Source: Schmidtea nova (Eukaryota). From it: 64,000 bases of DNA. Below are positions 4,867 to 64,000 of the stretch, one piece after another (the stretch's first letter is position 1; every line of letters begins with the position of its first letter). The position numbers and the translations under genes were made by a program. Under the pieces are notes generated by a model. The model ran no database searches, was not told the origin of the DNA, and saw nothing but the letters and a program-made list of their open reading frames with translations. The stretch lies in the NCBI GenBank assembly GCA_044892505.1, contig CM097883.1:183706001-183770000 (forward strand), given 5' to 3'.

Positions 4867-6698
4867 ATGAAAAAAAAAATCAAGCGTTTGGAGCTATTTT
4901 GACAAGGACATTAACTCAGAGACACCTAAATGTCTTACATGTCGTAAAGATATGAAATGCAAAGAAGGATCGACATCGGCTCTCACAACACAATTGAAAA
5001 TTAAACCGGGCATTAGTTTAAAAAATATTGAAGAGTCAGAAGAAAATCGCGCAAAAAAGATGAAACGTCAATCAGGTGATATGATTAATTTTATGAAATG
5101 AGAGAGCTTGCCGAAATTTTTAGCGAAGTGTGCTGCATTTGATGGATTTTCCTTACGAGGAATTGTAAATTCAAGTGCAATTAAGGAATTTATCAATAGG
5201 CGGGGATATACGATGCCTCAACATGCATCAACTATTAAAAGTATGGTTGTAGATTTGTCTAATGAAAAAAAACTGGAACTCAGGGACGAACTTTTAAAAT
5301 TAACAAGAACTGGAACACGATTTTCTTTTACCGTAGATAAATGGACAAATATAAAATGTAAACGTTTTTTAAACTTGACTTTGCATGACACTAAAAATGA
5401 ATATAAATTAGGTTTAATGTATATTAAGGATACGTGCGATGCTTTTAATTTAAAACAAATATTACGGAAAAATTAAATGAATTTTATCTTAATTTAAAGA
5501 AAGATATTATAGCATCCACTCACGATGCTGCAGCAGTGATGAAAAAATACAGGAATTTAATTGGCATTAAAAGTCAACTTTGCTATAATCACGCTGTAAT
5601 GGAATTATTTTATAAAAATATTGATGAACGTGTACTTCCTCAAAATGACACTGAAAGTGATAATGAATCTGATGAATCATATGAAATTGATTATTTTAGT
5701 TTTAATGCAGATAAATCTGATAATAATCCGTGTATACACGATTTGCTAAAAAGCGTCCGTAAAATTATCCGATGTTTTAAATATTCTAGTGTAAGAAATT
5801 CTATTTTACAAAAATACGTTTAAGAACAAGAAAATAAGGAATTAGTTTTATTATTAGATTGTAAAACGAGGTGGAACTCCTTGACACCGATGATTGAAAG
5901 GTTTATTAAAATTAAGGAGTGTGTACGAAAATCTATTAAAGATATTAACCAGGAGTTTTTATATAATGAAATTAATTTTAATATATAAGAAAATATTGTT
6001 CATGTTCTGAAACCATTAGAAATTAGCGTTAAAGAATTAAGCAAAACTGATGCAACAATTTTAACGGCGGAAGGAGCATTTCAATTTTTATTTGAGCAGT
6101 TAAAATATATGAATCTCCGTTTAGTTCTGAAATGAGAAATTTATTAACTAAAAGAATATTAGAAAGACGCAATCAAAATTTAGTCACTTTGTTAACTTAT
6201 TTACAAACTACAGTGATTCCTAAAACAGTATTTAACTCAACTCAAGTATATATATCCAAAGCTTCCACAATTGCATACGAAAAACATTATAGGAAGGCTT
6301 TTCCCAAAAAACCTGATATAACAGAAACAGGCGAATCATTCGATGTACTTGTAAATAGAGACACTCACACAATTTCCTCAACTGTCATAACGGATCCGTT
6401 ATTTATAGAATTGCAAAAAAGCATATCTTCCATTATGACAGTTCCATGCCCGAAAGACATTTCGAAGGAATCATTGCAGTTAAATAAAGATTTCAAATCA
6501 TTTGAATCTACCAAAGAACGTACGCCAAATCTAGAAAAATTATATAAAGCATTATTAACGATTAAACCCACTTCAACTGCAAATGAACATGTATTTAGTG
6601 TTGCTAATAATTTTTGCACCAAAATTAGAAATTCTATGCACCACAATACACTTGATGCATTAGTTTTCTTAAAATATTATTTTTTAAATAATAAATAA
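4867..6698 (+). pseudogene. Inner hAT transposase (BED finger, DDE core, dimerisation domain), disrupted
   Basis: SSVWSYF..CLTC (BED), FSFTVDKWT..KRFLNLTLH, CKTRWNSL, TIKPTSTANEHVFSVA..LDALVFLK; several stops and frameshifts. Confidence 0.88.
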
Positions 6699-7159
6699 AA
6701 AAATGTGTGTTATTTTATTGTATAAGTAATAAGTATTGTATATTTCTATTTTTCTTACATTTTGATATTTGTGTTCATTATGATGAATTTTATTGTATAA
6801 GTAATAAGTATTGTAAATTTGTCTTTTATATTTTGAAATTTTTGTTCATTATGATGAATTTTGTTGTATATATTTTACAATGTACGTATAACTTCTCTTA
6901 TTCACCACCTTTGAAAACAAAAATAAAAGAATTATTTCCTCTTTTCGTGTTTCATTACCTATTTATATTTATTTATTATACCTATTTTTAAACAATCAAA
7001 CTATTAACATATAATTTTAACAAATGTTTACATTTTTTTTAATTTTGCAAATTACGTACTTGATTTTCTGAGGACAGTTTTAACCGGTTAACAGGTTTTT
7101 GATACGTAAAATACCCGAAAACCGGTTTGTACTTTTCCTCCGGTTATTTAGATGCCCTA

Positions 7160-8894
7160 TTCCAGAATGGTATTCCAAAAACACACCAAGAACACAGTTT
7201 CCAACTTATCCATGACATTCGCTAAATTTGTTGCTTCTGATCTCGTTTCTTTCTTTTGCAAACTGTTGCTGCCACTTTCTTGCAAAACAGATTGGTAGGT
7301 TTTATAGTGCTGATACATACTTCGTAGTGCAACAGCATGAGCAGACCACCGCGTGTCACTGAACCGTTTTGGAAGTAGTGCAGACTTTGACTTATCCGTT
7401 CCGATTACCTTTCGGCTGACAGCATCTTTGACAAGATTCCATCTATATGTCGAATCAGACAAGAAAACATAAATGTTCTGAACAAATCCGAAAAATGCAA
7501 CTGCCTCAATGCAAGCGTCAACAGCTGCAACCCCAGACAGATTCAGTGAGTGTGCCATACAAGGAATATAGGACGCCGTTTTTATGATTTCAATTATACG
7601 TGCCTGTACACCAGAATATTGTCCAGACATATTGCTGGCATTGTCGTATGTCTGACCTCTGCAGTCATTTAAATCAATATGAAGATCGCGAAAAGTTTCA
7701 ACAATTGTATCGAAGAGATGAAGACCGGTGTGTGACGAAATTTGAACAAATTTTAGAAAACGTTCAACAGGTTGGCCATTACTTTTCATATAGCGAACCG
7801 TGAAAGTTAATTGATCTGTGTGTGATATATCAGGCGTAGAATCAACACTGAAGGAAAAGTACTTTGCCCTTTTTAATTCATCAATAATACCTTTGGTGAC
7901 TTTTCTGGCCATAAGACCCACAAATTCTTCATAAGTAGTGGATGATAGGTATGATGTGATGCCATGTCCAGCATTTCCATGTGTCAATATGTTCCGCAAT
8001 AAATGAATCATATTCGGCTAAATACTCCAAACAACCTAAAAAGTTTCCATTATCTGCACTTCCAAAGGTTTCTGAAGATCCTCTGAGTGATAATCCACAC
8101 GATATGAGGAATTTTATTGTAGAAAAAACTCTCTTTAAAACTTCTCTCCAATAATGTTTTTGTTTCACAGCGTGCTCCCAAATTGATTTGTCCAAAGTCT
8201 GAACATTGGATATACGCGTTGCATAAGTGGGTAGAGCATATCTGTGATCAGCTGATTTTTCGTGTTGTTCAAGTCGATTTATGGTACTCCAGCTGTCAAA
8301 TCCTGTAGTCGCAAGAGCAGACGAACTGTTTATCGAAAACAGTTTACATACAAAATAAAAAACGCATCCAGATGATGGCGAATACAAAAGCCAATGCCTT
8401 TGAATTTTTTCTCCATTGTGAGATTGTGAGTAAAATGCTGAATCATTAAGTTTTCTGTTACAATTGGTATATTTCCTTAACGAATTTGCATAAACTCCTT
8501 CACGGTTTGCACACGCATTGGGCCCAGTGTGAAGCCAATAATTCACAAGATTACTATCCAGTACATTCCAAAAGGCTGGATCAGTTACAGAAATAATATC
8601 ATGTTTAGCAGTGTCAAACAAAGTTAGCGTATTTACGATTGATTCAGCCAGGATGATATTTAGTTGTTCTGATGAAGAAGTTATTTCATCAAAATCGTTT
8701 TCTTGCGGCGAAACATCTGTTGCAGATGAACTTTGTAGTAATTTCTCAGTATCAGCTAATTTTATTTCAACGGATTCACTATAAGTTTCAGATCTTTTAA
8801 CAAACTTATCGATTCCGCCACGTTGCAGTTCTGCCGCCTTTTCAAAAAGACGTTTCTTTTGGCGTTTTTGTGCGCCAGATTCAAATTTTTTCAT
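7160..8894 (-). pseudogene. N-terminal part of outer ZMYM1/Tip100-type hAT transposase (TTF zinc finger, DUF4371-like region)
   Basis: MKKFESGAQKRQKK, WLLYSPSSGCVFYFVCKLF, HEKSADH, LSLRG..GNFL, YFSFSVDSTPDISHTDQLT, CRGQTYDNASNMSG, PCMAHSLNL, DTRWSA; frameshift near 7980. Confidence 0.92.
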
Positions 8895-9617
8895 GGTTTA
8901 ATAGTAAATGTTAATTATTGTTAATATTAGTGTTAATAATAATATTATTGATAATAATGTTTTTAAAAATAATTATAATATACTATTATGTAATTTTGTG
9001 TGACGGTCATATTTAACTTATATTCGAATTTTAGTCTTGTAGACCCTCCAACGGCCACACAAAATATTTAAAAAAATCTCTAATCTAGCAAAGCATGAAT
9101 GAATGCGGTGAAAAGAAAGTAACATTCTACTACGCCGGTTAGATAATCTCAAGAGAGCGAGGCTAGAAGAATGTTATAATGCAATGATTTAGTAACACAT
9201 GTGGGATAAATATCGGATTCCTTGTCTAAATACAATATGTCAAGTTATTTATCTCCTATAACCAGATATACAGATATAAATTGTGGTAGTATTCAGTTGA
9301 CTGAAGAAAGTTTCAAGTTTCCAGATATAATTATATGCTGCGCCAACGATGCCAACGATCGTATGCCCATCACCCGGTCTGCTCAAATACAATCGGGTAC
9401 ATACATGCTACTAATGCCTACAGCCATGGACTCTATATCATAATATAGGAGTCCATGCTACAGCTTATCTTAATACAGATATGCATCTTGATCCGACTGT
9501 AAGGGATACAAGGCTTATCTGGCTATATCATCTTGCATAAAATAATAAGAACCATATATTTTTGTTCTATTTTATTTTAGCCGACAAATATTGTAAATTT
9601 GTTAATTTCATAGTAGG

Positions 9618-39400: not shown

Positions 39401-41647
39401 AAAAACGAATTACGAAACTAACAGTTTATTGCAGATAACAATTTATAGAATAAATTTAATTTTTATTGAAACAAAAAGACATAACAAAATAAGCTTTATT
39501 TAACTTAAAATGGAGCAAATTACAAAATATCATTGAATAACTCACCATGAACGTACATACAAGAATAAAGATGTTCGTCTGTGAGGCATAAAAAATATTC
39601 AGGATAATAAGATCCCAAGCATAAATTCCCAGAACGAAAACCCGAAAAATCCTCTTGCATGATCTTCCCAATAATTTCCTTAGCTAAAATTCAAAATCAT
39701 AACATTAAACTACAAAATGTTAAATTTACTTTAGTTGAAAACTCCGGTGAAAAATTGATGTATTAAAGATTGGAGCGACGATTGAAATTGATGATGACTC
39801 TCCCTTGGAAATCTGAACCACTAAAAGGAGAAAACTGTAATTATATAAATAATAATTTAAATGTAACTTACCAGTTTGAGAATCAAAATTGAGGGGAATC
39901 TCATTACTAAAAATAACTACCTAAAATCAATAGTTATATTATAGAATTTAAATTGGTATGTTAAAAATTACCCAATAGAAATCAAGGAATTTTGCTTACC
40001 CGTCTATATAGAATTTCCTAAAATAGGGGGAACGTTGAGGGTTTTGAGGGAATTGCGGTTGAGATCGGATTTCCTAATTAAAAATTTAATTCGAAATTGG
40101 AAATAAAATTAGAATTGATAAATAAGAGGATTATCAGTAGAATAAAATTAACATACAAATTATAGAATGTATATTATTACCGTTGCTAAGGCCTCGGCGA
40201 ATTTTTGAAAAGTCCAAATGATAAATTTCAATAAAATGTTAAAGATTTATAAAGCAAGATAGACAATAGGATTAGGATATAAATCAAGCTTCTCTAAATT
40301 TTAAATATGGAAAACACAAAAATTTATACAACTTCGAATATAATAATTAATTTGACAAAGCTAACATCGATTGAAAGTCCCCGAATATATGTCTTTTTAT
40401 AGGAAGCATAAATCACCGAATTGAGTTGGCGATGGTATGTTTGAGGGTAAACATTGTAGGCAATAATGAATGTGTGAATGGAAATAATTTTGTGTTGGTT
40501 ATGAAAAATCGATAAGTGTTCATCGATCAAAATGATTATGTTTTATTGATTTAAAATGAATATTTGGAATTGAATGTCAAGTGACGATTGGAAGGGGTTA
40601 TTATTGTATAATTTTTTAGATGTCCGAAATGAATATAGAGCAGAAATTTGAAGAGATACACAAACTGATTGTGGAAAATGCCCGCCATAATCGCCGGGTA
40701 GACCAGTGTTTCGCCGAGATGGAGAAGGCGAAAACTTCAAATACGGATGCGTTACAGATCATGACATCTCGGATGGAGAAGTTCAGAGCGCGATGCCGGG
40801 AGATGGAGTCGACGTGGTCGAACAAAGAGACCGTCGACAAACTCCGCAAACAAATCCAGATGCTGTTGCAGCAGGCTGCGGACGACGCAATGAAATTGCG
40901 GGCGTGCCGAGTCACAATCAGGGACTTGGAAACACAAAATGAACGGCTAAGATTGGACAGTGGTATCATTGCCGCCGTCCTGCCAAAACCACCCTGTCTG
41001 TCCCAAGAGTTGTTCCCAGTGAGGGTCGAGGAACAGATATTGTCACCTCCTGTTCCCGCCAAAACAGCCAGGCAGAAGCCCAATAAAGGGGTGAGAGCTC
41101 GCCGAAGACTTCGGCAGGAAGCGAGACTGATGGGACAAGTCCGCAAGGAATCTGTAGACATAATAGACATTACTGCTTTGTGATTTAATGGACAACGAGT
41201 ATCCTATCGTGTATTTATTTGTTTTTTCTTTGTAGTTGGTGTTGTTTTTTTTGGTAACATTAAAGTGTTCTCTTGTTTTTTTTTTATTTTTTTTTATTGG
41301 GTTGAATGATTGAATGCAATAAAGCAAGGTATAGAATAAATTGAGTAAAAGCAACTGAGGTTCAATAGTAAAGGAAGTACATGAAGTTTTCTGAAGTAAA
41401 TAATACCTTGGAGGGACAGAAATGGGCGAGAAACCTTCTATCGGTAGCCTTTGGACCCAGGAGATATTCGGTCAATCATAGTTTCGTATTGACGACGCTC
41501 ACTGATTGCGAATACCCACCCACTTCTTACAGTACCAACGTTACATAGTGACGGGTAACAAGATGGTAGTTTAAATATTTTATGTGTTGAGTTGTTGATG
41601 AGAGCCATAGTAACGTCAAGGTCATATTGACGATCAACAACCCACCA
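36443..41647 (+). repeat. 3' LTR of element 1 (5.2 kb)
   Basis: TGTTGGGC start, CCACCA end, blocks shared with the 5' LTR. Confidence 0.85.
40620..41183 (+). CDS. LTR-encoded 187-aa protein: coiled coil, Pro-rich segment, basic patch, C-terminal SIM-like motif
   Basis: Intact GC-rich ORF in AT-rich LTR; RARRRLRQ, VDIIDIT; AATAAA at ~41317 and ~41336. Confidence 0.75.
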   Translation: MSEMNIEQKFEEIHKLIVENARHNRRVDQCFAEMEKAKTSNTDALQIMTSRMEKFRARCREMESTWSNKETVDKLRKQIQMLLQQAADDAMKLRACRVTIRDLETQNERLRLDSGIIAAVLPKPPCLSQELFPVRVEEQILSPPVPAKTARQKPNKGVRARRRLRQEARLMGQVRKESVDIIDITAL

Positions 41648-45776: not shown

Positions 45777-47810
45777 ATATTAAAAAGATGAAAAATTAAT
45801 GATTATATTATTTTTTAACTATTTATAATTATTTAAATTTTTTATTTAATATTCAGGCTCAATATATTACAATTTTTGTAATAGTCGTTTCCATAATGAT
45901 TATAAAGAATTCTTTCTTTCGCATAGGACTCACCTTTCCCAATTAATGCCTTCGAAAAAATGTCTTTTTAATAGCATATATGCTAATTATATTACTAATA
46001 ATATTAATAATAATAATAATAATAATATTAACAACAACAACCTTCATAATACAATTAATCAAAATACTTTAAATAATTATAATAATCTACAAAATAATAA
46101 TAATAATACAACAAATACTATTAATACTATTAATACAAATAATTTACAAAATACTATTAATACAAATAATTTACAAAATACTATTAAAACAAATATTATA
46201 CAAAATACTATTAATACAAATAAAAGAAAAAACCAAACATTAATGGATTCAGTTCCTAAAAAACTTATAATAATCGACATCAGTGATGATGAAGATGAAA
46301 ATATTATTAATAATAATAATAATAATAATAATATATCTCTCATCAGTGATGATGAAGATGATCATATTTATAATAAAAGTAACAATATTATATCTGCCAT
46401 TGACGATGACTTAATCGTCGTCAATGATGATGAATTTGATGAAATGCTCAATATTATAAATAATAATAATAATAATCAAATTGGTATGGGTATTGTTGAA
46501 GTTACTTCAGACTTGAACGATACCCATTTTATTATAAAAATGGACGTTTCTAATTTATTATTAAAAACGGTCTCTGTGCCGGATATATTGTTAGAGAAAT
46601 TAAACTCCTATATAATTAAATTAAAATCATCCAAAATTCAATTTTGTCTCAAGGTAGAATTTGAGAAAGATGATGAATTACAATCTTTTGTAATCTCAAA
46701 TTCTGCCAGAGAGTGGAGTGATACCTTTATTGAAGAAGGTATCACTAGTTTAAATGAAAAAATTGTCCAAATAAACGAAAAAGGGAGTAATTGGACAATC
46801 TCCAAAATCGAATATATAAGTTTTGTAGTAACAAAATTTTCAGAGATTAGTAGGCTCAGCGGCAGCAGTTTTATCGAGACTCCTAATACCTTAAAAAACT
46901 TAAATTGCCTAGTTAACGTCAACAATAGCGATACATATTGCTTTCTTTATAGTTTTTTAGCTATAGTTAAATACGATAGTATAGAACGCCAATACCGGCA
47001 TAGGGCTACTTCTTACGATCTTTCCCAACTGATATTTGACCCCAATGACATGCCCATGAAATTAGTTAACATTAAGAAATTCGAGAGGCAAAACCCCGGC
47101 TACAGTATTAATGTCCTTACCTATGACGAAAAGGCCCAAATAGATGTAAGTGATAGCGATAATGATGATAATGTCGTTCTTAAACACCCTTTTATAGATA
47201 TAGTGTATCGTAGTAAAGTAGTCGGGGCAATTCCTATAAATTTACTTCTTTTGGAGAATAAAGATAATTTTCATTATCTCGCGATTACCGACTTGAATCG
47301 CTTTTTTAAATTGCCGAAACAGCACCATCACCCCAGTTAGGATTCGCAGCCAATGGTGCCCTCGTTGCTTGAATGGCTTTAGGAACGACGAAGCCTTTAA
47401 TCGTCATAAGGGTCTTTGTACCAAAAATCAGTTGGGTACCACTCTCTACACATTACCAAAAAATAAATTTTTAGAGTTTACTGATTGGAAAAAAACAGTA
47501 ACTCCTCCTTTCGTAATATATGCTGATTTCGAAGCAATATTAACAAAAGACCCTGTTCATTACCAAAAACATATTCCTATTGCTGCCGGTCTCCTTCTCA
47601 TTAATAACTTTTCTGGGGTGAGAATTTATAAGTCTTTTGTAGGGTTAGACTGTGTTGATCAATTCCTAAATGAAATCGAGTCAATCAGTAGATATATAGT
47701 AACGCCCTATTATTTTAAAAATTATAAAAAACGTATGACGATCACTGCTACTCAACAGCGCGAATTTGATAATAGCACTAATTGCTATTTATGTAAAAAA
47801 CTTATTTATG
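44606..47810 (+). pseudogene. Polinton protein-primed DNA polymerase B, N-terminal half, with predicted spliced 5' exons; frameshift near 47340, truncated near 47810
   Basis: KGSNWTISKIE, SGSSFIETP, NVNNSDTYCFLYS, KFERQN..SINV, HYLAITDLNR, WCPRCLNGF, PPFVIYADFEAIL, CYLC. Predicted exons 44606-44660, 44710-44778, 44829-44993, 45857 onward. Confidence 0.88.
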
Positions 47811-50088
47811 TAAAAGAACAATATAAAAGGAATTCGAAGCAAATGAAATAACACTAATAAAGAAAAATTGAGAAATAATAAAAGGAAATAAAACTAGATT
47901 AAAGCAAATAATAAATTTAGAACTATTAATGATAAAAACAAATAAAAAGAACGAACAATCACACGAATGAATAATAAAAATAATTATATATTAAAAGAAA
48001 ATAAAACCCAATTAATTATAATGAACAAATTCCTAAAAAGGAAATATTAAATAAGAATGATTCGTCAATTTAACGAACGCAACTCGAAGCTGATTGGTCG
48101 AGCCAACCCGTCCAAATAACATAAATAGCGACGGCAATCCCAGTTCAAAAGCATTTTTTTGTATTTCAAGCACTTTTTTAGCATTTGTTAATAAATTATT
48201 TTGAGCTTCAGTATCATTGTCATTGTACCAATCATCAGAAATTTTACGTTTTGTGGATATCAATATTGTAAAATATAATTTGTTGTTATTTTATAAATAA
48301 TTTGATAGCTAAAATCTCTCCTCATTGATATGGTGAGTCTCGGGCGGCTTGTTGAGTAGTTCCCAATTTGCTGAACCTACTGTTCCAAACTGAGAACTAA
48401 GGTCAGACAGTTGGTATAGTCACTGAAGGCAGTTGTAAGGAGCTAGAAATACTAGGATTTGAATATTTTTTTGGGAATCCCTAGATCATCGAAGGATCTA
48501 TTTTCGAGGGTAAACTACTAGTGAAAAAATGATATGAAATGTCTGTAAGCGTAATGAGTTGTTATTAAATAGATGTCGTGAGAGCATTTGCAATATTATT
48601 ATTAAAACATTAGAAATTCTATCGTGAAATATATATAGTAAAAATTACAGCTAATGTCGAGAAAACAAAGCTTCAACATTGACATGCATCAAGTCGAAAA
48701 TCAGAAAGCATTAGTTACACGGAATTTGAGCTAAAATACGGTAGAGATAATTCACTTGAGAAGTCGTTGTGGTGCAAATGGGAAATATAAAGTGCGGATT
48801 GCTGAAGCAATTATGAAATTTGCCCAATTATCATGACAATGAGCGTCACAACTGTTCATAGAGAAATAATGAAAAATTGGATAATGGTCGAGATCGACAC
48901 ATGAAAAATAATTATCGGTAAAAAATCGGTAAGACATCAAATAGACAGTAATTATAATAATAGCGACTTGGCTGATTGGAGAGATGGGGAAAATTACTTA
49001 GTAATTACACACGGGCAACAATTAGGTTGAAAATCCATTATTAATAAAAAGAGTCACAATTATAAAAAATTCGGAAACTTTTCATAAAGCCACGAGAATG
49101 TCGCTGTGGTGGTTGTCAACTTTACACCTTAAGATAATAGTTAAAAATAAAATTAATATAACTAAAATTAAAATTAAGGTTTAATAGTTAACGTGGAGTC
49201 GTGAAATGTTTTGATTGAATACTTGAATGTATTAAAGAAGGAAATTAATGTTAATATATAGTTATATGTTATCACTTATAATATCAAAAACACAAAACTT
49301 ATATAAAATGAGTATATTACTCTGCAGTAGCAAATGTGTATTAATAATTTTCATTCTTCTATTACAGATAATGACTAATCAAATGAACTTATATGAGGTC
49401 ATAATAGTGAAGGAGGAACCACAGTACGTCCTTCACCGCCCGAGATGAGAAAAGGAAAAATTACGGCAGTCGAACTAGGGCGTAGACGAGGACTAGAACC
49501 CTTCTCCACCGAGTGTGAATTACAATACAAGAGAGTTGTTTGACTAGGAAGCAGCGAATGATCTTTCCGAGCTGGAGTGAATTATGCCAACACACCAGAA
49601 TTTTTAGTACACTAAAAGATTCCGGGTACTATCTTCGAGATGGTCAGCTATGATCCTACCGAGAATGATCAACAGAAGAATTCTGTATACATGGTTGAGT
49701 TACATTTCCAAAGAGGAAACATCGCTAAGTGACAAGGGACGGCCGTTAGCAGCATTGATAGATAGCGTAATATAATCAATGTTCATAGTTGTGAATAAAG
49801 CTTTCTTTAATAACTGAGAAATGAATCATTGTAAATCTACCTTTTTTTAGTTTTGCGTGACGATAAAATCTTTTGGTTCACTCAGTTCAGTAATAATTGA
49901 TTAGATATGTAAAGTAAGAGTTATGGAGATATAAACACCCAAAAGTAATATAGAAGGATAAATGCATAACCGGAAATTTTAGAAGAGTTATTCTTTTTTC
50001 ATAAGTTTAATTTTGTCATTTGCCAATTGAGACCAATTGAGGAAATGTAAAAAGTTGAAGCGTGTGGTGTTAATCATGTTATGTTAAT

Positions 50089-50821: not shown

Positions 50822-51568
50822 TTTAGATTTTCTTAATATAATATCTAGATTTTTAAATTCTTTCTTTATTAAAACGATTTACCAATTATAAAGTTGAGAG
50901 ATTTTAAATATTATAAATTAGATTTTAATAATTAAATATTAAGTGACCTGAAATTACATTTAACTAGTAAAAAAGTAAAGAAAAAAATATTTAAGAAAAA
51001 TCAATTTTTAAATAAGTTGCCTAAAATTCTGGTTATTGTTAAAAATTTACAATGAGCAATTGAGCTTCGTTACCGAAATTGCTCTTTATTGAATTGGGTT
51101 CATAGCTGCTAGTAGAAGGTACTACGTATACTTTAACTTTTTAGAACATACTTGTTCATTAGTTAGTTTTTCTTGAATCGAGAATATCTAGCGTTTACCC
51201 CAATTTAAGCATTTGATTTCATGAATTTTCCAAATCTTTGATATGACTGTTGGGTTGATGAAGGAACGGATAATGGCGAAAAGTAAACAATTAATCATGA
51301 GAGAATAAAGAAAAAATGAAGAATGTAAAAATAATAATAAAACAAATAAAAAATGACAATTAACAATAAAAGCACAATTAAAACAAAAATAAGCAGTGAA
51401 AAAGCGAGGAAAATGACAAAATATGTGAAATATGAGTAAAAGGCAAAAAATAAAGAGAATAAAAGAACAATAATAAAAATAATAACGAAAAATAATAAAA
51501 TAATAACGAATAATACAAGATAAAATAAATTAATAAGAAAATCGAGCGTTTAACCAATAAAAAGGTTA

Positions 51569-51612
51569 CTCGATTCTGATTGGCTGCCTGAGCGTCGATT
51601 TTAATATATAAG
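51569..51612 (+). promoter_or_regulatory. Y-box (CTGATTGG) plus TATA
   Basis: ctcgattctgattggc...tatataag, followed by a GT-AG intron around 51783-51854. Confidence 0.5.
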
Positions 51613-52921
51613 GAAGCGCTCAGGTCAGTCAATTTAATGTCATTTATATCAACATAAAATCACTCTGCAATTTTCACTCGCACAAGTATCCACAGTCAAG
51701 TACGCCATTATCAGTTCAAGAAGAATTCAACAACGCTCGAGGAAGAATCGCTGAAATATTGTGCATAAATCAGAAGGAAATTGTAAGTAACTTGTTATGC
51801 CAAATATAAATTTTAACCATAAATCATATTTCGTTTTCATTAATTGTATATAGATAATGCGAGAGTTCGGCGATCCCGTTGATTGTCAGCTCTCCGGGGA
51901 GATCCATCTTTGTTTCGTGTCTCGGCACGGGGCGAAGATGGGTTGCTCCGTAAAGACCTTTTTATGATGGACAGGGAATGAGTGAATGTCCGGAGGCCGT
52001 TGCAGCATCAAAATATCAAAACTACATATAATCCGTAGGAAGCGAAAACGTTGATTGAGAAACCTACTAATTTTTAGAAAAATCCAAAACGGCTGCGTTC
52101 GTTGAAATTTTTGATAAATCTCTAGAAAATATCACAGTAAATCCAAGCGAAATCGTGAGTTTCCATCTAACCGTTGTAAACCAGTTCCTATAGTAGGTGA
52201 AATGCGTTTTGGGTATGAAAAGATTGAAACATAAAATTGATAAAATTCCAGCTCTAATCGTTTACCCATTCCCACCAAATCGTATAAAACTGCCTGCACA
52301 TAATAATTCATGCGATTACATAATTATGCCTAATAACCTCTCTAATGATTCACAGTCAAATCCAATGCCCGAGCGAATTATTGAAAACCCCGTAGATACC
52401 GTCAAGGAATGCGGTAATTACAGATATGAGATAGATTAGAGATTCATCAAATACATGAGTCCTTAACCGACAGCGATTTCGTTGAGAATAGGAAATAATT
52501 ACCGGAAAGGCAATTAGCGATGCTTTCGTAGTTCTTACTAGAGTTCGCAGAAATCTAATAATTGGCCTGAAATTGCTGGCTCCGAGAAAGTAACAATTAC
52601 CGATTGTAAGAATAATGATCATAATTAAATGCTGAACATCTCAAAATTGGTCAATTAAAATAATCTCAATCGAGCGAAAAATCAACATGAAATGAGAAAT
52701 CTAGGGGAGAATGATAATTGATAAAATGGGGAAATTTCGGGAACCTTACCCTACATAAGCGTCATTGATACTGTTCGCAAATCATGAAACATATAATAAA
52801 TAATTAATTCCCCAAATATTACTAAGCGAGTGAATGAGGCGAGAGCGAGGACACATGATGGGGGGCGCGGTATATAAATTGTGAATTACCCATTTCTTGT
52901 ATACTTAGACATTCACGAACG

Positions 52922-53425
52922 ATGTATTATACCGGAATTCAAGTTACAGGACCTCAAGGAGAGACTCGGAGAGAGAAAGATTTCATGGACGAGACGCGGA
53001 TGTACGATACGCACCTAATGATGCTCATGCCGCTCAAGCCGATCCCAACTGAGTTGGCCAATGAGATCCTACACGAGCACAAGGAGGAATTCGAAAGGAC
53101 GGGAATTGCCCCGCCGTTTAGCCTGTTCCGAGACGGTCCATCGGATATCATTTGGCATGGCAGCAGGGAATGGCCGATCAACGTGGATCGCCCTCGCTGG
53201 CCAAACCAGGCGAAATACTTTGTGGAGACTCCCACCGAAATTCCCGGGAGATACCAAGTTTATTATCAAGGCGAGATTCCGCAAGAAGAGTTCCTGAGTA
53301 CGGGACGATTCGTGTTCGCCCCGGCTCCATCTCCAAGTCCGACGGAATCACCATACAGCCCTTCAACGCTTAGTGATGACAATAGCGACGACAGCGAGGT
53401 CGAGATCATCGCCGAATATTATTGA
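52922..53425 (+). CDS. LTR-encoded 167-aa protein with Ser/Pro and acidic tail
   Basis: GC box + TATATAAA at 52861-52878, intact ORF, AATAAA at 53506. Confidence 0.75.
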   Translation: MYYTGIQVTGPQGETRREKDFMDETRMYDTHLMMLMPLKPIPTELANEILHEHKEEFERTGIAPPFSLFRDGPSDIIWHGSREWPINVDRPRWPNQAKYFVETPTEIPGRYQVYYQGEIPQEEFLSTGRFVFAPAPSPSPTESPYSPSTLSDDNSDDSEVEIIAEYY

Positions 53426-53860
53426 ATGTGATCAACTGTACCTGTATTAACCATCAATTATATGTTTCTTTGTGTAGTTGTTTTTCCTCTATTCACTTGT
53501 TTAGTAATAAAAAGTTGTAAAGTAAAGGAAAATAAAAGGTCATCGCGTAAGCACTCCACCGACAGTAAACATGCAATAAACTAAAAGAGATAGTAAATCC
53601 AGTAGCGTAATACAAAACTAAAGTTTTAGGAAATTAGGCAAAAGCACAGGAATAGAAATCTGTTAGGTTAAATGCACTGCACTCGTATACAAATATATAG
53701 CGTTTAGTCCACGAAGGATAGCCACCAACCGAGGAGGCGAAGAGGTGGAGAAAACCGAGTCGTAACCAAGTAAGGGTCGAGTATAAATCCCTCGTTTTGC
53801 GATTAAAAACTAACTCAATAATTACGAATATGCTTCTGTCTTCTAGTAAAGAAAAGAGCC

Positions 53861-54292
53861 ATGGACGAGAAAACTATAGGACAATTGAAGAGGAGACTCA
53901 TTGACCTAGAAAGCAGTTATTTTTCACCGACAGAAATGAAGAAGGTGAAGGAGCAATTGATCAGGGCAACGCAGGTTATGCAGGATCAGAGACAAGAGAT
54001 AGATGCCCTAAAAATCGAACTCAAAAATTGTAGAGCATTCATCACAGAGAAATTCATAACGGACAACCTTAAAAACTTAATTCGCCCGATAACGTTAGAA
54101 AGATGGTTTCCCACACCAGATCAATCAATAAGTACCGAAATCGAGATGCCAATACCGCCAACCACAAAGCGAAAACGAAGGAAATCGCACGCACAACGCC
54201 GACAACAGTTGAAACTGAGTATGGAGGTCGACACCAACAAAATGGTCATCGATGTGAACAGTATTGGAACAACAGGCGTGAAACGCAAATAG
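53861..54292 (+). CDS. LTR-encoded 143-aa coiled-coil/NLS protein, positional analogue of 40620-41183
   Basis: TATAAA at 53782, KRKRRKS, VIDV, AATAAA at 54311. Confidence 0.75.
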   Translation: MDEKTIGQLKRRLIDLESSYFSPTEMKKVKEQLIRATQVMQDQRQEIDALKIELKNCRAFITEKFITDNLKNLIRPITLERWFPTPDQSISTEIEMPIPPTTKRKRRKSHAQRRQQLKLSMEVDTNKMVIDVNSIGTTGVKRK

Positions 54293-54803
54293 TGATTGTA
54301 ATGTTATGAGAATAAATATATGTATTTAAATAAAAATGTGTTGTTATTTGTTAGACGAGAATTGAATTAAATAAAGTAATAACGACAAATGAACTCCAGT
54401 TTTCATCGACTCATAAAACCGTAAATAACAAAGTAACTAATAGGAACAATAAGTATAGGGGCTGGATGGTAATATAGGAAATAGAGAGCAAACACCCAAA
54501 ATGAGAGACCTAAATACAGGGTGAGGAGAGTTACAACGAGACCTTCTATCGGTCAAGCTAGAACCCGAACGATGCGACAAGTCAGGAGTAGTTCTTGTGA
54601 AGGAGCTCACCTGCTGGCTTGCGATCGGCTGTTATACACAATTCCAACGTGAAGGATTAGGGTAATTCACGGGTGTATGAACAGTTAAGTTTTTATGTGT
54701 GTGTTGGACCCTAGAGAGCGAAGAAGAACGTTTTTAGAAAGAGAAAGTGAAGAAAGCTGATTCAGAGTTTGAAATTTTTTAACAGAACACACCAACATAA
54801 ATT

Positions 54804-54821
54804 TGGGGGCTCAGCCGGGAT
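54804..54821 (+). promoter_or_regulatory. tRNA-Pro primer-binding site
   Basis: tgggggctcagccgggat, identical to 26308-26325. Confidence 0.9.
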
Positions 54822-56631
54822 TAAAGCGATTTCATTGTGAAAAAATATGAACAATAATGAGAAAGAGTGTTGAAACACACCATCAGCAGGGAAATTATAA
54901 TAGAGAAAAAAGGGAAACTACGGGCGCAGACGGAGTCAATAAGAAAAGCAGAAACCATAACGATATCGTAACGCCGAGGCGACATTTCTCATGAAACCAG
55001 GAAAAGGTCAAGTAGTAGATAGAAACATAAAAGAAACGAAACACCACTACTTCAAATGTACTAGAAAAGGAACCGATGGCTCACCAACATAAATTTGGGG
55101 GCTCGAAATCAATAGTGGCTCTATTGGAAAAAGCAATAACAATAATAAGGACCGGGGATCTAAAGCGATTTTATTGTAGACAAATATGAACAATAATAAG
55201 AAAGAGTTTCGAAACAATAACGAGCATAAATTTGGGGCTCAGATGGAAGTGACCCTATTGGGAACAAAGAGGGATTAACAAGCAACCCAATGAGGAGAAT
55301 GTGGAAACTATGGCAACAGACGGAGGTAGCAGGAAAAAGTAGAAATTTAACAATAGTGCAATGTCGGGACGACATTTGGGAAACCGCCGGGAGAATTGGA
55401 CAAGAAACGAAGCAGATTACTACTTGGGATAAGTCGAAAGAAACCGCAAATCAATCAACATAAATTTGGAGCTTAACGAGTGGCTCTATTAGGAAAATAG
55501 TGCAAATAAGTAGAGAAATAAAGGTATAAAAGTAATAAAAGGAAAAGCAAATAAATCGTATGTATAAAAGTACTGTATGGAAGGTATTTAGGCAAAAGTA
55601 TAAAAGTAGTAAACGGAATGTAAATAAATTAGGAATGTAAAGCATAAAACGGTAAGTGCATGTATAGAACAATCGAAAAGAGGGCATGTTGTAAATAACG
55701 CAAGTAAATAAAACTAAAATAACAAGACAAAAATAAAAACAAGGAATAAGCGAAAATAGGAACTAAAACACGGGGACGACAGTAATTAGGAATAGGGGGT
55801 TACACAATCAATAAGCTAAAAACAAGTGAGAGGGATAGACAATTAAATTATAAAGGGGTAAACAAAGTAATAATATCAAGGGATAAATAAAATGATAATA
55901 CAATGGGGTAAACGGGAACAAAGAGATAAAAAGACGGGGTTGGATAATTGCGATAAATAAACTAACAAGGGGATAGAAAACAACCTGAACAAGTGGGAAA
56001 ACGTGCGCTTGGGAAATGATCGGTGGATAAACGCTAACGCAAGGGGTAAATAAGAAAGAAAAAAAAGGATATGATGAGATAATAAAAGTTGGGGATTGAA
56101 TAGTAAAGAGAATGGAGCTGCTGACCGGTTTTCGGACATTCACCACTGTCGAGAGAGGAAAACGAGATGTGAAAATGTGTGTATAAATGACAAAATAATA
56201 ATTTTTGAGCTACCTTCGAGTAGTACGTTAGGAATCCCATGGGTAAACCGACAGATCAAACTAACTAGGGAAATATAGGACGGGGCCCATCGCATATGTC
56301 GGAAAACCTCTGTGGTGTGACTGATCACCATACCGTGCAGTGGGGGACCGACGCGATCGTGTTATATCTTTTTGGTTGGGGAGAGAAATAGGAAAGCCTA
56401 GGGGAATAAGAAGCGCGCTAAAACAAAAATAAAAATAAGAGAAGTAAATGGCCAGTTGTTACCCAGAGATAGGAAGCGTTATAAAATAAAAGAGATAAGC
56501 TGGCACAAAAGAGATGAAATTAAACGACGTCGTAGTGAATTGATTGGGATATGTAATCAGCTCTTGAGAATTTATAAAGTTACTAGTAACGTGGATAAAG
56601 AAATGGTAAATAGAGGAACAATTGTAAACGA

Positions 56632-57119
56632 GAGATGCTTTGAAACATAAGCCATAGAGATGCTTTGAAACATAAGCCATAGAGATGCTTTGAAACATAA
56701 GCCATAAAGATGCTTTGAAACATAGGCCGCAGAGATGTCTTGAAACATAGACCAGATGAAATTGAGGAAATCCTGGAATGCCCTGTAATGTTCGGGTCCA
56801 GATGAAATTGAGGAAATCCTGGAATGCCCTGTAATGTTCGGGTCCAGATGAAATTGAAGAAATCCTGGAATGCCCTGTAATGTTCGGGTCCAGATGAAAT
56901 TGAGGAAATCCTGGAATGCCCTGTAATGTTCGGGTCCAGATGAAATTGAAGAAATCCTGGAATGCCCTGTAATGTTCGGGTCCAGATGAAATTGAAGAAA
57001 TCCTGGAATGCCCTGTAATTTTCGGGTCCAGAGGAAATTGAGGAAATCCTGGAATGCCCTGTAATGTTCGGGTCCAGAGGAAATTGAAGCAATCCTGGGA
57101 TGCCCTGTAATTTTCGGGT
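56632..57119 (+). repeat. Adjacent tandem arrays: 25-bp unit x5, then 46-bp unit x8
   Basis: gagatgctttgaaacataagccata from 56632; ccagatgaaattgaggaaatcctggaatgccctgtaatgttcgggt at 56752 and every 46 bp. Confidence 0.95.
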
Positions 57120-57241
57120 CCAGATGGAATATTGTCGGTGAGCAAAGAGGGGGATGTCGACTTCAACTCAAACTAGCAGCCGATTCTGACCAGCAAAGAG
57201 GGTGGGGAAGCACCCATGCCCAAACTAGCAGTCAGACTATT

Positions 57242-58223: not shown

Positions 58224-61200
58224 GTCGTAGACAAAACAGGAACCATTGAGAAATCATACTTCCTGAGACACAGTACAAGGGTTGACATAGAATTAACACC
58301 AGAACAAGCGGAGAAAATCAAGAGAAATCGATCGCTATCGTTAAAAAGACAACCACTAAAACCCCTTGGGAAACAATTGTCGGATATTAGTGACAAATCA
58401 AGCGATAAAGAGAATCAACCGAAACCAAAACAAAAAGAAAATAAAAGAAAGACTAGAACAAACAGAACAAAGTCAGAGAACGACGAAATAAATATAACCC
58501 CAGTAGAAACAAAAGTAGAGAACGAAGAAATAGATACCACCCCAACAGAAAACAGAGAGATAGAAAGAATAGAAAACGTAGTAACCCCAGAAGTGGATAT
58601 AGATAATAATAATAATACAACAAGAGATAGCGGATTCGAAAACATGACGGAAGTAGAAGTTAAAAAGGAAGAATTGAGGGAAAAATTTAGAGGCGAACCA
58701 TTCAGTGGTGACGCTAGTAAATTTGACGCGTTCATAAAGGAATTTAGCATATATATAAGAGTATGCCGATGGACAGATGTCACGGTAGTCGAAAGGATAT
58801 CGTTGTATTTAAAGGACAGCGCTCTCGACTTTTATGAAGAAGCGAGAGGCAGAGAAAGAGCACCCAAGAATTGGGAAGAAATAAAAGTGTTTTTACAGGA
58901 AACGTTTGGAATGGCTAAGGTGTTAGACCAAGCATTCGACGACTTTTCAGAAAGGAAACAGAAGAGAAACGAATCCAACGCAGTATTCGCTAGTGAACTA
59001 AGAAGATTAGCTAAACTAGCAGAAGAAGGTGGAAGTATAATAAGCGAAGGACTATTAACCGCTAAATTCGTCCGAGGATTGAGGAGACCAGATATACGAG
59101 CACAGGTGGGATGCAAAGGATGCGTCAACCTGGACAAGGCATTAGAACTTGCAAACAGATTTGAGTTACACATGACGGTCAATGACGCAAGAATCGCCGT
59201 AGCAGCAAGCGAACTAAAGGAAGATAAACCGGTGGAATATGCAACCTTGAAACAATCTATACCAAACGCACATTTATTATTCAAAAGTGCTCCAGCCGGA
59301 AGAAACAACGACAATAACTCGCAGAACAATAACTGGAGGAACAATTCAAGAAACAATGGGAATAACAACACAGGATCAAATAGACAATGTCAATTATGTG
59401 GAAAAATTGGACATTGGCAACAGGATTGTTTCCGAAACATGAGTTGCAACAAATGTGGAAAAAGAGGACACACGGGGAATATTTGTCGAGCCAACAACTG
59501 TTTTAATTGTGGAGGATCAGGTCACTTGGCACGAGAATGTCGATCTGGGAACAACCAACAGGGAAATAGACCAAACAATGGGTATCGACAAAACACGGGA
59601 AATCGGACTAGCCCGAGTAATAACCAGAACAGTAGAGAAATAAGACTGATGCAGGAAGTAAACAGGCTATCAGAAGTGATAGAGGGGATGGCAAAAGCGA
59701 ATCAAAAGAATAACCCGCAAAAGATTAACATGATGAGGAAGACGGAAAACGAAAACGATAGAATAAACGAAGAAAGCAAACAAAGACACTTACAAGAGTG
59801 GCAAAGATTACAACGAGAAGAAGAAAGAGTGAAACAGGAAAGATGGCAACAACAACAAAACGCACCAAGAATAAACATGATGAGAGCATTCAAGAAGATA
59901 AAGGAACAATACTGGTATAACTACGAGAAAACCCCAAAGGAAACAGGAGATGTAGAGGTAGAACGAGGAATAGAAGAAGAAGAGACTCTTGAGAATAACG
60001 AACCAAAAGCCATAGAGGAAGGCGGAAGGAAGGAAGAAACGATAAGCGACAATGGCAACGCGGAAAACACAATTAAAGAGGAAGAAGAGAAACCAAAAAG
60101 GATGCTTGTGATAATGCCAAATGACCACGTATACGCATTTCGGTATGATGCAAAGGAACGAGTAGGAGACCTGATGCGGAGAATAAAGGAACTATGTCCA
60201 GAGAGGCTAGTAAGTAACGTAGAGATTTACTGGAAAACGAAAAACAAGCCCGAGAGAAGAATAAGCGAAACGGACATTTGGGAAGAAATAGGAATAGAAG
60301 TGAAGGAAAACAATTACTTGGTCCTTCGAAAAAGAAAAGAAAGAGAGAATAATGGAAGTGCGATACCCAGAAAAAGTAGAGTACAAGAAATATTTACCGA
60401 GCGACTCAGGATAAGAGCCGAAAAAGAAGTTCTGGAAACGAACCAGTCAGGCGTAAGAACATTACAAGATTTGTTAGATAAGGAAAACAACGAGACAAAC
60501 GAGGACCTAATCAAACCAGAACCAAGCACAGAAGAAAGAAAACGAATACATCTAGCGCAAATCAACATGATGAGAAACATAGGAAATGAATCCTCAGACG
60601 AAGAAGATAGCACAGTGAGTAGTTTAGCGGGAGACATATTACAAGAAACGAGACCGAGCGAAGAAGTTATGGAAGTAGATGAGAACAAAGAAAACGAACC
60701 GGAGATTAAAGTGGACAACGACGAAATAGACAAATTACGGGAAAATGCGTTGGAAGTGATCAGAAATGAGGAGTTCATAGAGGAATCCTCATATAGGAAA
60801 TTTGTGAAATTAGTGTTACAAGTAACTACGACGTTACCACAAGTTGATATATTACGAAATGAAGAGAAGAAGATAGTTGCAGAATATGTGAGCGGTATGA
60901 AACAAGAACCAACGGTAGAATACATAATACAGTTGTGGACGGAAGAAACCCTACCACGGATATGGATCAAGACAACGAATACAAACGAATTATATGAATG
61001 GGTAAGGGATAGATTAGGAAATTCGAACAAAAATAAGTCAATATACGTGGACGATTGGAAGATAAAGGCCAATACATCGCTAAGAGACGCACTTATATGG
61101 TCAGGTGAAGTGACGACGTTAACATTGAGTAAAGAACAAGTGGAAGTCGACCCGAGAAAATGGGCTAAAGAAGCCAATATAAGATTCAAAAATGGGATAA

Positions 61201-64000
61201 AACCACAGTTAAAAACAGCTAAGGAAAGGATATTAAGAAATAATTTAAATAAGTGGTCTGACCAAATAGTAGGACAAATTGAGAAAAATTGGGATAAGCT
61301 GATAACAGAGGAATTTAAGAACGTAAAAGAATGCATAGAAAACATAAGAGATACCGAAAAGATAAGATCGTCAAGATATGAAACCAATAGGTTAATAGGA
61401 AAGTTTGGAAAAACGATGTTTAAGAAAGGAGAAATAACGGGAGTTAAGGTGACAATAAAATTACCAAACGGCGAAGAAACGGAAATACATATAGAAGTGG
61501 GTTGTACGATTCGGGAATTGATGGAAATACTAGACAATACAATCCTACAGAGAGTAAAAGAGCAAAACGACGATGAGTATGAAGACGATATAGTGATAAT
61601 GTACAACGGTCACTTGTTGGAGAAACATGAAGAGATGTGTTTATATAGACTAGGCATATGGGATGACAAGCAGACGATAAGTATCATACCGATGGACGAT
61701 CCAGAGAGAATTACCCCAAGAGATGAAGCAAAAGCGAGAGAATTTCAAGAGGAAATGAACAAAAAGTTGAGACGAATAATGGATATATACGGACAATGGA
61801 GGAGAAATCCGAAATTCGGAGAACTATTAGAAGAATTAGACATGGAGCAATGTCGGAAAACACCTTGCGAGAAGGAGTGGGACGAAATCAATAAAGGTTG
61901 GACGATAAAAGAAGGAAGATATGCGGAAAAGGTTAAAAGAGAGATGGAAGACAAAAACGAACCAGATGCAAAACGGATTTGCATGGTAACACGAACAACT
62001 ATCCTACCCACAGATATAGACGGACCAGAATCAGCAGCCATACAGTTAGGTATGGAGAAAGCAAAAACGGAAGAGTTGATGGATATACTAAAAAGAAATG
62101 CACCACATAGAAGACGTACCGTGAAAAGTCTAGCAGAGTATATCATAGCAAATGTGGAAGACATTGACAGTTTAAGAAAAGTAGTAAAAGTCATTGAAGA
62201 ATACCGAAGAGGAAACGAATGGGTACCAGAACAATTAAACCAGGTAATCCGGAAATGGAGAAACCAAGAATGGGCACAAGAACGACTCGAGAGATTAAGC
62301 CTAAAGATAGTCTACCCACATTACAAGAAGGAGGAAATATGGGTACAACTTACGGAAAAAATTAGAGACATCAAAAAGAAATTGGCCTATGAGACGCCAT
62401 TTCATCTACAGCATCAAGGAAGATCATTAGACGATAACATGGAAATTGGAATAACACCGGTAGTGTTAGGAATTACAAATACGTTAACAGTAGCCGAAAT
62501 AGATGGACACCCACTAATAAGGAAGGAAGAGAGGAGATTAAAAGGTAGTATGAGTACACCAAGCCCACTAAAAGCAATAGCATCTCCAGAAACCGATCGG
62601 AATAGACCATCAACATCGTCAACAGAACAAAATAAAAGGGAACAATCACCAAAATCCTATGATGGTGATGAGATATTAATAGATAGTGATGATGCGTTGG
62701 AAGAATTAACAAAATTAACCATGAGAGAAAATGACAACATATTCGAAAGGATGGAACAACCAACGACATCTCAAATAAATGAAGTAGAAAAAGGAATAAC
62801 ACAAGAGGTAGTAATAGAAGCAGTTGACGAGGCGGAAGGACAATATTATCCACCAATGGAACAAGCAAGAGAACCACGAACAAGTGGAGAAAATCTGCAA
62901 TTGACCCAAGATTGGAATAACTGGCTGATGAATCGAGAAAACGACACAGTAGATAACATAGAAGAAAGAAGCAAAACAGTTAAAGAAATAGGTACGTCAA
63001 TGGATAAACGACCAAGGGGTCGACCAAAGTTAAACCCGGCAGAAATTATACCAAAGACTAGAGAAGAAAGGAGACAGGACCAATGGCAAATACGATTAGG
63101 GAAACTGGGAAAAATAGCAGACACGATTAATAAAGATAATATGCAGATAAAACAAGGGGCCGAATGGATCGAGAAATTACTCATGGAAGTGTTAGGGATA
63201 ATAGACCCAGAATTAAGAAAATTATGGTTACAAGACCAAGTAAGTGAAGGAGCTCGATTGCTACACAACGCTATTTCATCCATATTACCGGAAATAATCA
63301 AAGAGAAGACCAAGGCAACTCAATTGGATTGGGAAGGTGCAAGGAGATTAATAAGAACGCTAGTGGAAGAATCAGAAACACATGCAAAATATCTAGTGGC
63401 ATTAACATATACCATTTATAATTTACTCACATTGAGTAGAGGGAGAACACAGAGAATGTCATTCAGAAGACACGTAAAAGCCACGGCGCACATTATCGAA
63501 GTAGAGATCGAACCATATATCCTAAGAACTGGAGGATGGGAAAGATTTATAAAGGAAAAAAAGAACAAAGACCAAACAAAACCAACACAAAAGAAATTTA
63601 GAGAGTTGTTAAAGGAGTTAGAAAATGAAAGTACGACTATGGAAAACGGGAGGCCAATCACAACTTGGAATTCAGTAATTCTAATGTTGTTGATATGGAT
63701 GATGAGTGCAGAAGGAAATGCAGCGTTTGAAGTGTTCGACTGCGATCAAATGCAGTTAGGAGACAGATACTCGTTAAGAGGAACAGAACAATGTAAAGAC
63801 GCGAATCCAGTTAAGTTGAAAACGTTGAACAAGAAGATATTTTACCATGTGTATCAAGAATCAGATCTGATCCGGACAGAAGTTCAAGAATGTACAGTTA
63901 CTAGATCGAAATTTGCGTTTTACTGCGGCAGATCATCATACTCAGCAATCGTACTACCAGGAACAGATAAAAAACCCGTACAGTTATCAAGGAAAGGATG
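58224..64000 (+). CDS. gag: Giant Gag-accessory-glycoprotein polyprotein (open to window end; first ATG at 58644)
   Basis: Translated by hand, no stop from 58224 to 64000. Capsid-like FSGDASKF..WEEIK..F; CCHC x3 (59388-59540); Ubl-like domains; KRPRGRPK; EPYILRTGGWERF; signal/anchor; FDC..YSL..C..C..YCG. Confidence 0.9.

Follow-up and report, generated by a model that had tools for sequence, protein, structure and literature searches.

Burro elements, also named GYPSM1, are giant gypsy long terminal repeat (LTR) retrotransposons of dugesiid planarians. The section of a review that deals with them describes a single huge open reading frame (ORF) with gag, a Ubi2/SUMO-like domain, a BCL2-like domain, and a mononegavirus-type env lying in frame between BCL2 and the protease, together with reverse transcriptase (RT), RNase H (RH) and integrase (IN), ankyrin repeats, a MATH/TRAF domain in an accessory ORF, and multi-kb LTRs (PMC6431247). 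The same section suggests that the BCL2 of Burro meddles with apoptosis, and calls its effect on host apoptosis worth testing. In the part of another paper that concerns BURRO1, its RNA is reported to rise in differentiated cells after smedwi-2 RNA interference (PMC8532177). Here, we describe one copy of such an element in a 64,000-nt stretch of the genome of the planarian Schmidtea nova (assembly GCA_044892505.1, contig CM097883.1, positions 183,706,001 to 183,770,000 of the forward strand; “the window”). In this copy, a Bcl-2-like domain, a short hydrophobic stretch, and env follow one another in a single polyprotein. The hydrophobic stretch is predicted to behave as the internal signal peptide of env, and we consider it probable, with moderate confidence, that it tethers the Bcl-2 product at birth, holding it weakly or transiently. 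The retrotransposon that holds these parts is of the giant gypsy LTR type already described as Burro; the studies behind Burro and GYPSM1 are reportedly those of Jurka (2007) and Grohme (2018).

Parts of this arrangement have counterparts elsewhere. In hepatitis C virus (HCV), the immature core protein is held in the endoplasmic reticulum (ER) membrane by its C-terminal hydrophobic signal for the next glycoprotein until release by signal peptide peptidase (SPP), according to the excerpt cited here (PMC4068138). As at the core/E1 junction, the C-terminal segment of a cytosolic protein is the signal of the following glycoprotein, and after the signal peptidase cut it remains in the ER membrane; unlike the present case, core is the capsid protein of an RNA virus, and its release by SPP has been shown, whereas here it is only proposed. 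The leader of foamy virus Env is likewise a retroelement env signal behind a cytosolic domain, with type II topology, and is a substrate of signal peptidase and SPPL. It differs in that it belongs to a separate env ORF, has a cytosolic part of ~60 aa, is cut mainly by furin, spans the membrane with a segment of standard length, and precedes a class I env (PMC7828637, in the parts that treat the leader). Anakin Pao is an LTR retrotransposon with a captured chuvirus-type fusion glycoprotein, but it belongs to the BEL/Pao superfamily of mosquitoes, and the main text of its source lacks the terms “signal peptide”, “transmembrane” and Bcl-2 (PMC7642597).

The likeness to Burro is the closest. The element of the window copy has 3.55-kb LTRs with TG..CA ends, a target-site duplication (TSD), and the order gag, ubiquitin-like (Ubl), BCL2-like, env and then protease. 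A sister family has an unbroken ORF of 5140 aa from stop to stop, which is the length given for one Burro-like element in the Burro section of the review (PMC6431247). Unlike in that section, where the TRAF-like ORF lies upstream of ORF1, it lies downstream here, and the window copy is without RT, RH and IN. On signal peptides, transmembrane (TM) helices, topology, protease sites, an AT-hook-like motif, an extra BH3-like helix, and a second ectodomain, the review's section on Burro is silent. Our literature search, which covered sources other than Grohme 2018 and its extended data, and no supplements, did not find the signal-peptide/anchor reading or a four-pass topology stated. The parts of the polyprotein are as follows.

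58224..64000 (+): polyprotein ORF, stop to stop; 1925 residues in the window, continuing to window-equivalent 65018 (2265 aa)
58644..59543 (+): Gag, a capsid-like region with CCHC zinc knuckles (PF00098, E 2.3e-9; Retrotrans_gag, E 3e-4 on a sister element)
61443..61709 (+): ubiquitin/SUMO-like domain (PF11976, E 0.0057, under the curated cut-off)
61971..61994 (+): last candidate retroviral-protease site ahead of the Bcl-2 domain, and putative start of the product that carries it (motif [IMV][NC]M[MLV])
62292..62492 (+): second possible ubiquitin-like domain, by its look (ESM Atlas 0.82; no Pfam ubiquitin match)
63006..63029 (+): AT-hook-like KRPRGRPK, read from the sequence (PF02178, E 0.056 on one row)
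63105..63131 (+): BH3-like LxxIAD motif, LGKIADTIN, carried by an additional helix that precedes the Bcl-2 core
63147..63566 (+): Bcl-2-like helical domain with a degenerate BH1 (THAK) and the BH2 PYILRTGGW (family profile, weak fold matches, nonsynonymous change, pN, below synonymous change, pS)
63567..63674 (+): charged, less conserved linker, partly predicted helix (model residues 181–199, pLDDT <50)
63675..63725 (+): predicted internal signal peptide of env (core VILMLLIWMM and a small-residue c-region)
63726..64000 (+): first part of the env ectodomain, of the mononegavirus/chuvirus fusion-protein type, with its remainder past the window's end (PF24664, E 1.6e-8 for the part in the window)

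An earlier sequence-only reading of this stretch had proposed a Bcl-2-like domain whose tail anchor doubles as the signal peptide of the glycoprotein. The motifs that it quoted all lie in frame in the ORF 58224 to 64000 (+): KYLVALTY at 63387–63410, IEPYILRTGGWERFI at 63507–63551, VILMLLIWMM at 63675–63704, SAEGNA at 63705–63722, and FEVFDC at 63726–63743. Their order, i.e., a BH2-like GGW, a linker, a hydrophobic core, small residues, and an xYDC env start, recurs in eight element families of this genome, which are 12–56% identical to the window, and among 35 distant proteins from databases it is seen in 8. A chance motif was rejected, since the layout is kept across 16 lineages; a host Bcl-2 gene was also rejected, since the domain shares its reading frame with gag and env and has LTRs on either side.

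Several properties of the hydrophobic stretch point to a signal peptide. Its core comprises 10–12 residues. The C-terminal TM helix of a tail-anchored protein has ~17–22 hydrophobic residues, and the stretch falls short of this length in the window's family, being longer in family F (families are lettered here). In six near-complete ORFs, the strongly hydrophobic segments occur at the same places: ahead of env, where the segment is short, at the env TM, and at the last TM. On the hydrophobicity scales used, the stretch of the window's family has a KD19 of 1.51, versus 2.54 for the env TM and 2.62 for the last TM; with values of 1.41–1.51, this family is among the weakest. Of 37 sequences whose upstream part is long enough, 34 have small residues at both −3 and −1 when the cut is placed two residues before xYDC, compared with 2–15 of 37 at eight other registers. 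This pattern is too well kept for an uncleaved signal anchor, which we rejected. The env model PF24664 takes in the stretch, with a match that begins at residue 1819 (model positions from 5); it scores 33.4 bits on the window part, against a cut-off of 27, and E 4.5e-69 on the sister ORF. A signal-peptidase-type site is predicted at AEGNA/A, as the sequence-only reading had it, or one residue later, and the arrangement of hydrophobic segments agrees with its proposal that the env ectodomain would be released into the lumen.

Whether the stretch also belongs to Bcl-2 can be judged from relatives without that domain. A search of 1.84 billion representative proteins gave 35 relatives, of which 8 have Bcl-2 before the stretch and 8 do not (143–891 residues upstream); the remaining 19 were left out of the split as too short, motif-less or, in one case, chimeric-looking. 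All eight Bcl-2-less relatives have the signal stretch. Comparing 16 Bcl-2-bearing with these 8 Bcl-2-less stretches revealed no difference in KD19 (p 0.56) or in the Hessa sum (p 0.52), and for KD11 (p 0.07) the Bcl-2-less stretches were the higher. An env tree of 17 rows (LG+G4; without one long-branch relative and without short fragments) requires four changes for the 10 Bcl-2-bearing rows and rejects them as monophyletic (p-AU 0.007). In it, a Bcl-2-bearing element has as its sister group three that are Bcl-2-less and retain the AT-hook-like motif (support 97/99). AT-hook-like GRP[RK] precedes the signal peptide in families A, B and C and in four distant database proteins, both with and without Bcl-2. 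Env recombination could mimic the rejected monophyly. Since the stretch occurs equally in Bcl-2-less relatives, and since the env tree rejects a single Bcl-2-bearing clade, we conclude that it is not Bcl-2's own tail anchor. Judged by sequence comparison, the putative signal is a part of env that stays when Bcl-2 is absent, which suggests that Bcl-2 is a module repeatedly lost or gained. The double-duty tail anchor of the sequence-only reading is thus unsupported, given the short core, its low KD19, and its sameness with and without Bcl-2. Native tail anchors offered no comparison, as the two proteins retrieved for it end without one, and the host bcl2-2 stops soon after BH2 and has no hydrophobic tail. 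In searches for a free-standing viral glycoprotein locus, viral contigs gave 4 pattern matches and metagenome contigs 591, none of which was confirmed.

The Bcl-2-like domain is real at the level of the family, as far as sequence profiles can tell, with homology well supported by sequence and weakly by structure. We aligned nine rows of <93% similarity from eight families, picked from 71 unbroken segments in element loci. The resulting profile gave 158 matches at E≤10 among Protein Data Bank (PDB) sequences, and 60 of the 60 listed belong to the Bcl-2 family; the best among the matches listed is Bcl-xL, at E 2e-7, over helices 4–6 and BH2. PF00452 is matched by six of the nine rows at E≤1 (best 4.3e-8), the window row not being among them, and its curated cut-off is passed by copies of sister families C and D, inside ORFs of ~3000 aa. 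A hidden Markov model of the element domain scores all 11 supplied host Bcl-2 exons (best E 6.6e-10 at Z=11); the highest scores against that profile come from one set of paralogous host Bcl-2 genes, a possible donor lineage. One exon of a host Bcl-2 gene shares 99% identity with S. mediterranea bcl2-2, which marks the host as a Schmidtea planarian, and hhalign of the element alignment against host bcl2-2 gave a probability of 25% with BH2 alone aligned. A protein homologue search with the window region gave no match among 2947 longer and 945 near-length candidates, and ESM Atlas returned nothing at ≥0.9 for the Bcl-2 region or the region upstream. Matches to Pox_polyA_pol_C (Pfam, E 0.07) and PDB 4w60 (E 1.4) were dismissed as chance.

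The domain also appears to be under purifying selection, with pN of 0.16–0.34 against pS of 0.60–0.75 in the core of six family pairs. Within the window's lineage, amino acid identity is 0.59 in the Bcl-2 core, 0.53–0.58 in env, and 0.36–0.42 in the linker after the core; the linker upstream of the core is constrained too. The BH2 resemblance noted by the sequence-only reading holds widely, as a GGW-type motif (W/Y-x-x-x-x-GGW) is found in 16 of 16 Bcl-2-bearing sequences. In all 16, BH2 lies 27–58 residues ahead of the hydrophobic core, close to the native arrangement, and Bcl-2 is the last domain before it; in the window, 45 residues, partly predicted as helix, lie between the two. The absence of NWGR at BH1, also part of that reading, is borne out by THAK in the window, and the column of the BH1 arginine holds a basic residue in 11 of 13 rows. 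The BH3-like LGKIADTIN is where the sequence-only reading placed it, and LxxIA recurs in seven of the nine aligned rows, with the aspartate confined to the window's family. It is not, however, the BH3 of the domain's own helix 2, because Bcl-2 alignments start at model residue ~38–42 and the motif occupies residues 24–32; this placement on an extra helix before helix 1 depends on structural alignment of a low-confidence model. Compared with cellular and viral Bcl-2 proteins (Bcl-xL, Bfl-1/A1, Hydra Bcl-2-4, herpesvirus vBcl-2), the element domain shares helices 4–6 and BH2 by profile, a hydrophobic segment after BH2, and a whole-chain structural alignment of ~115 residues (Z 5–6.5). It differs in that it has no NWGR, sits inside a polyprotein with its BH3-like motif outside the fold, and is followed by a short segment, a (−3,−1) site and a lumenal ectodomain.

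Structure searches, which the sequence-only reading had suggested, favor Bcl-2 weakly. A fold from the single sequence (pLDDT 43) was left out of the fold search. With a fold from aligned rows, Bcl-2-family titles dominate the Foldseek result (46 of the top 50, including one Affimer complex with its chain unverified), although none is significant. Three named viral Bcl-2 proteins are among the top 10 of BFVD, again none significant. In the VIA wide search, Hydra Bcl-2-4 is fifth, with Z 6.5, rmsd 3.7, and an alignment of 114 residues, the longest listed. Over all VIA alignments, Z for Bcl-2 proteins is 5–6.9, and whole Bcl-2 chains align over residues ~38–177 of the low-confidence model. Predicting a complex between the element domain and a BH3-like peptide of the host, run without an alignment, gave a score of 0.01 and no verdict.

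How the polyprotein might be cut can be read in part from its sequence. The motif [IMV][NC]M[MLV] occurs at residues 501, 550, 780 and 1252, with 0.1 occurrences expected. It recurs where RNase H meets integrase in a family copy, and behind integrase in the sister family, which would fit self-protease sites; none lies between residue 1252 and the signal stretch. We propose the following course. After ~1800 residues, the ribosome would reach the internal signal, and env would be threaded into the ER lumen. Signal peptidase would then cut at AEGNA/A or one residue later, and the element protease would cut upstream, near residue 1252. The outcome would be a cytosolic product of ~580 residues held in the ER by the signal stub and comprising a helical region, a possible Ubl domain, an acidic linker, the AT-hook-like motif, the BH3-like helix, Bcl-2 and the stub. 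This N-terminal product would end in the stub, as no candidate self-protease site lies between BH2 and the stretch. The stub would be env's own signal, serving the Bcl-2 product by its position and not as a Bcl-2 tail anchor. Being short, it would likely give a weak or transient hold, ended by SPP or by turnover. The most likely job of the product would be to keep host cells that make env and particles alive, through binding to pro-apoptotic members of the Bcl-2 family at membranes. Of the coupling of apoptosis control to env synthesis put forward by the sequence-only reading, what stands is simply that gag, Bcl-2, env and pol share a single ORF.

Several points weigh against this account. The window sequence alone matches no Bcl-2 in Pfam, PDB sequences or ESM Atlas, so the Bcl-2 assignment rests on relatives. 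The fold used for the structure searches, built from 14 aligned rows, is poor (pLDDT 53.5, pTM 0.54). No Foldseek row reaches E≤0.001, the best being Bfl-1 at E 0.17 (TM ~0.45, rmsd ~7), and four unrelated helical proteins outrank the best Bcl-2 in the VIA wide search. None of the 13 rows retains the BH1 glycine, which makes a canonical BH3 groove doubtful. At the conserved register, the window reads N-A-A, and asparagine at −3 breaks the (−3,−1) rule; the window fits the rule one residue earlier, as G-N-A. The protease motif was defined after seeing the sites, and other families use looser ones, which leaves some chance of a cut within the linker.

That last point leads to a soluble Bcl-2 product, in which an element or host protease would cut the charged linker and the signal would serve env only. 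Flavivirus capsid, which is freed from its anchor by a protease cut, is an analogue. In favor, the long linker is charged and less conserved than any other part (amino acid identity between families of 0.31–0.49), and host bcl2-2 shows that a hydrophobic tail after BH2 is not obligatory. Yet the linker of families A and B has no motif like those at the other candidate sites, and no conserved site is visible across families; we regard a soluble product as distinctly improbable. The opposite possibility is a lasting, selected double use, in which the stub stays as a tail anchor and Bcl-2 is kept because the stub recreates its native layout. Consistent with this are the position of Bcl-2, which directly precedes the stretch, at 27–58 residues, in all 16 Bcl-2-bearing sequences, the longer TM-like cores of families F, D and E (KD19 2.1–2.4), and the foamy virus Env leader peptides, which persist as membrane proteins in the cited part of PMC7828637. 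However, the stretch of Bcl-2-bearing elements is neither longer nor more hydrophobic (median KD19 1.75, against 1.96 in Bcl-2-less ones), the window's family has some of the weakest stretches, the shared placement may be one inherited event, and a similar second signal follows integrase, where anchoring has no evident purpose. We therefore think a lasting anchor rather unlikely, and prefer a weak or transient tether formed at birth.

A separate question is what the domain does. Its Bcl-2 fold may have been kept while BH3 binding was lost, making it a signalling adaptor, or the groove may be filled by its own BH3-like helix. The loss of the BH1 glycine and the extra LxxIA helix ahead of the fold would fit, as would the company of ankyrin repeats, Ubl domains, and a RING–zinc finger–MATH ORF in the same element; poxviral Bcl-2-fold proteins, as an analogue, are immune modulators. 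Against this, even very distant elements retain BH2 and a basic residue in the BH1 arginine column, and cellular Bcl-xL is, among the matches listed, the nearest to the profile. Such a function is somewhat unlikely in our estimate. A bolder version of the anti-apoptotic role is that the Burro polyprotein is processed flavivirus-style, as a precursor that crosses the membrane four times and contains two surface proteins, each with an internal signal peptide; the stub would be a selected anchor, the AT-hook/Ubl/BH3/Bcl-2 product would block apoptosis at the ER one-to-one with env synthesis, and SPP would be the release switch. This we put forward as a speculation, and doubt it as a whole.

The surroundings identify the copy as young but non-autonomous, because its LTRs are 99.6–99.99% identical, its ORF stops in env, and it has no RT, RNase H or integrase. 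The features at its 5′ end are as follows.

51248..54797 (+): 5′ LTR, ~3.55 kb, TG...CA, with the TSD TGAC ahead of it
54804..54820 (+): candidate primer-binding site, present behind LTR1 and LTR2 and absent behind LTR3

The candidate primer-binding site may resemble one for tRNA-Pro. Further LTR repeats lie beyond the window, at window-equivalents 72871 and 88094. Together they form a tandem LTR–internal–LTR–internal–LTR unit, from 51248 to window-equivalent 91651, with a single TSD; TGAC, as read at the LTR ends, is 4 bp and brackets the whole unit. Its second internal part is without the Bcl-2/env region. The frame of the window copy breaks inside env, before the env TM, and the polyprotein ORF ends there; downstream, another frame encodes the end of env, its TM, protease and ankyrin repeats. 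Neither Pfam nor neighbouring stretches revealed RT, RNase H or integrase in this copy, and the protease runs into the ankyrin repeats. They are followed by a TRAF-like accessory ORF with RING, TRAF zinc fingers and MATH (window-equivalent 69098–70516).

Relatives supply what the window copy lacks. With the last 308 residues of the ORF as query, 128 of 2512 candidates scored, i.e., there are at least 128 related copies: 8 at 98–100% identity, 1 at 81%, and 119 at 56–58%. In the 5140-aa sister ORF, gag, the Bcl-2-like domain and env are followed by protease, RT, RNase H and integrase, then by ankyrin, and finally by a region rich in Cys and the last TM. The gypsy order PR-RT-RH-IN is present there and, by motif, in one family copy. 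Families of 2992–3401 aa have, as read by eye, the identical domain order minus ankyrin. Overall, unbroken sister ORFs run gag, Ubl, AT-hook-like motif, BH3-like helix, Bcl-2, hydrophobic stretch and env, and then TM, protease, RT, RNase H, integrase, (ankyrin), a second hydrophobic stretch, an ectodomain and a TM. The short second stretch, after integrase or ankyrin, is found in five of six near-complete ORFs. In five near-complete polyproteins, this signal-like stretch is followed by an ectodomain of 140–550 aa and the last TM, which we take as a second surface protein; in the sister ORF, its region is at residues ~4495–5083, and a remnant in the window that is related to it matches fn3. The env ectodomains of five families have, by raw count, few N-glycosylation sequons, 0–2 per ~550 aa. 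A Burro-like polyprotein is filed under a metagenome-assembled genome of Flavobacteriaceae, and is most likely animal DNA in a bacterial bin.

The window holds further sequences of note. Inside the LTR are two ORFs of 188 and 156 aa (52859–53425 and 53822–54292, +) without a family match; a coiled-coil ORF at 40620–41183 (+), similarly without one, looks like them. The leader between LTR and gag has a tandem repeat at 56460–57170 that opens frames on the minus strand. A broken Burro-type remnant at 28757–34954 (+) has a RING finger, integrase, ankyrin, fn3 repeats and a TM. At 1298–3740 (+) lies a broken fragment of a mononegavirus L protein with cap methyltransferase domains (E 3.4e-43 and 5.6e-12), an endogenous RNA-virus element. 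Pieces of hAT transposase occupy 6096–8897 on both strands, and broken ORFs at 45850–47851 (+) resemble, by eye, a Polinton-type DNA polymerase region, with no Pfam match.

The element type and the adjacency of Bcl-2 and env are already known from the Burro section of the review (PMC6431247). What is new is a testable processing map, with likely cuts by signal peptidase and the element protease, the Bcl-2 product that they would release, and its location, as well as the putative second signal peptide and ectodomain after integrase. If the flavivirus-style processing set out above were true, a retrotransposon would keep its host cell alive with a captured Bcl-2. If the anti-apoptotic role is true, cell death in an animal that serves as a model of regeneration would be under the influence of a highly abundant mobile element.

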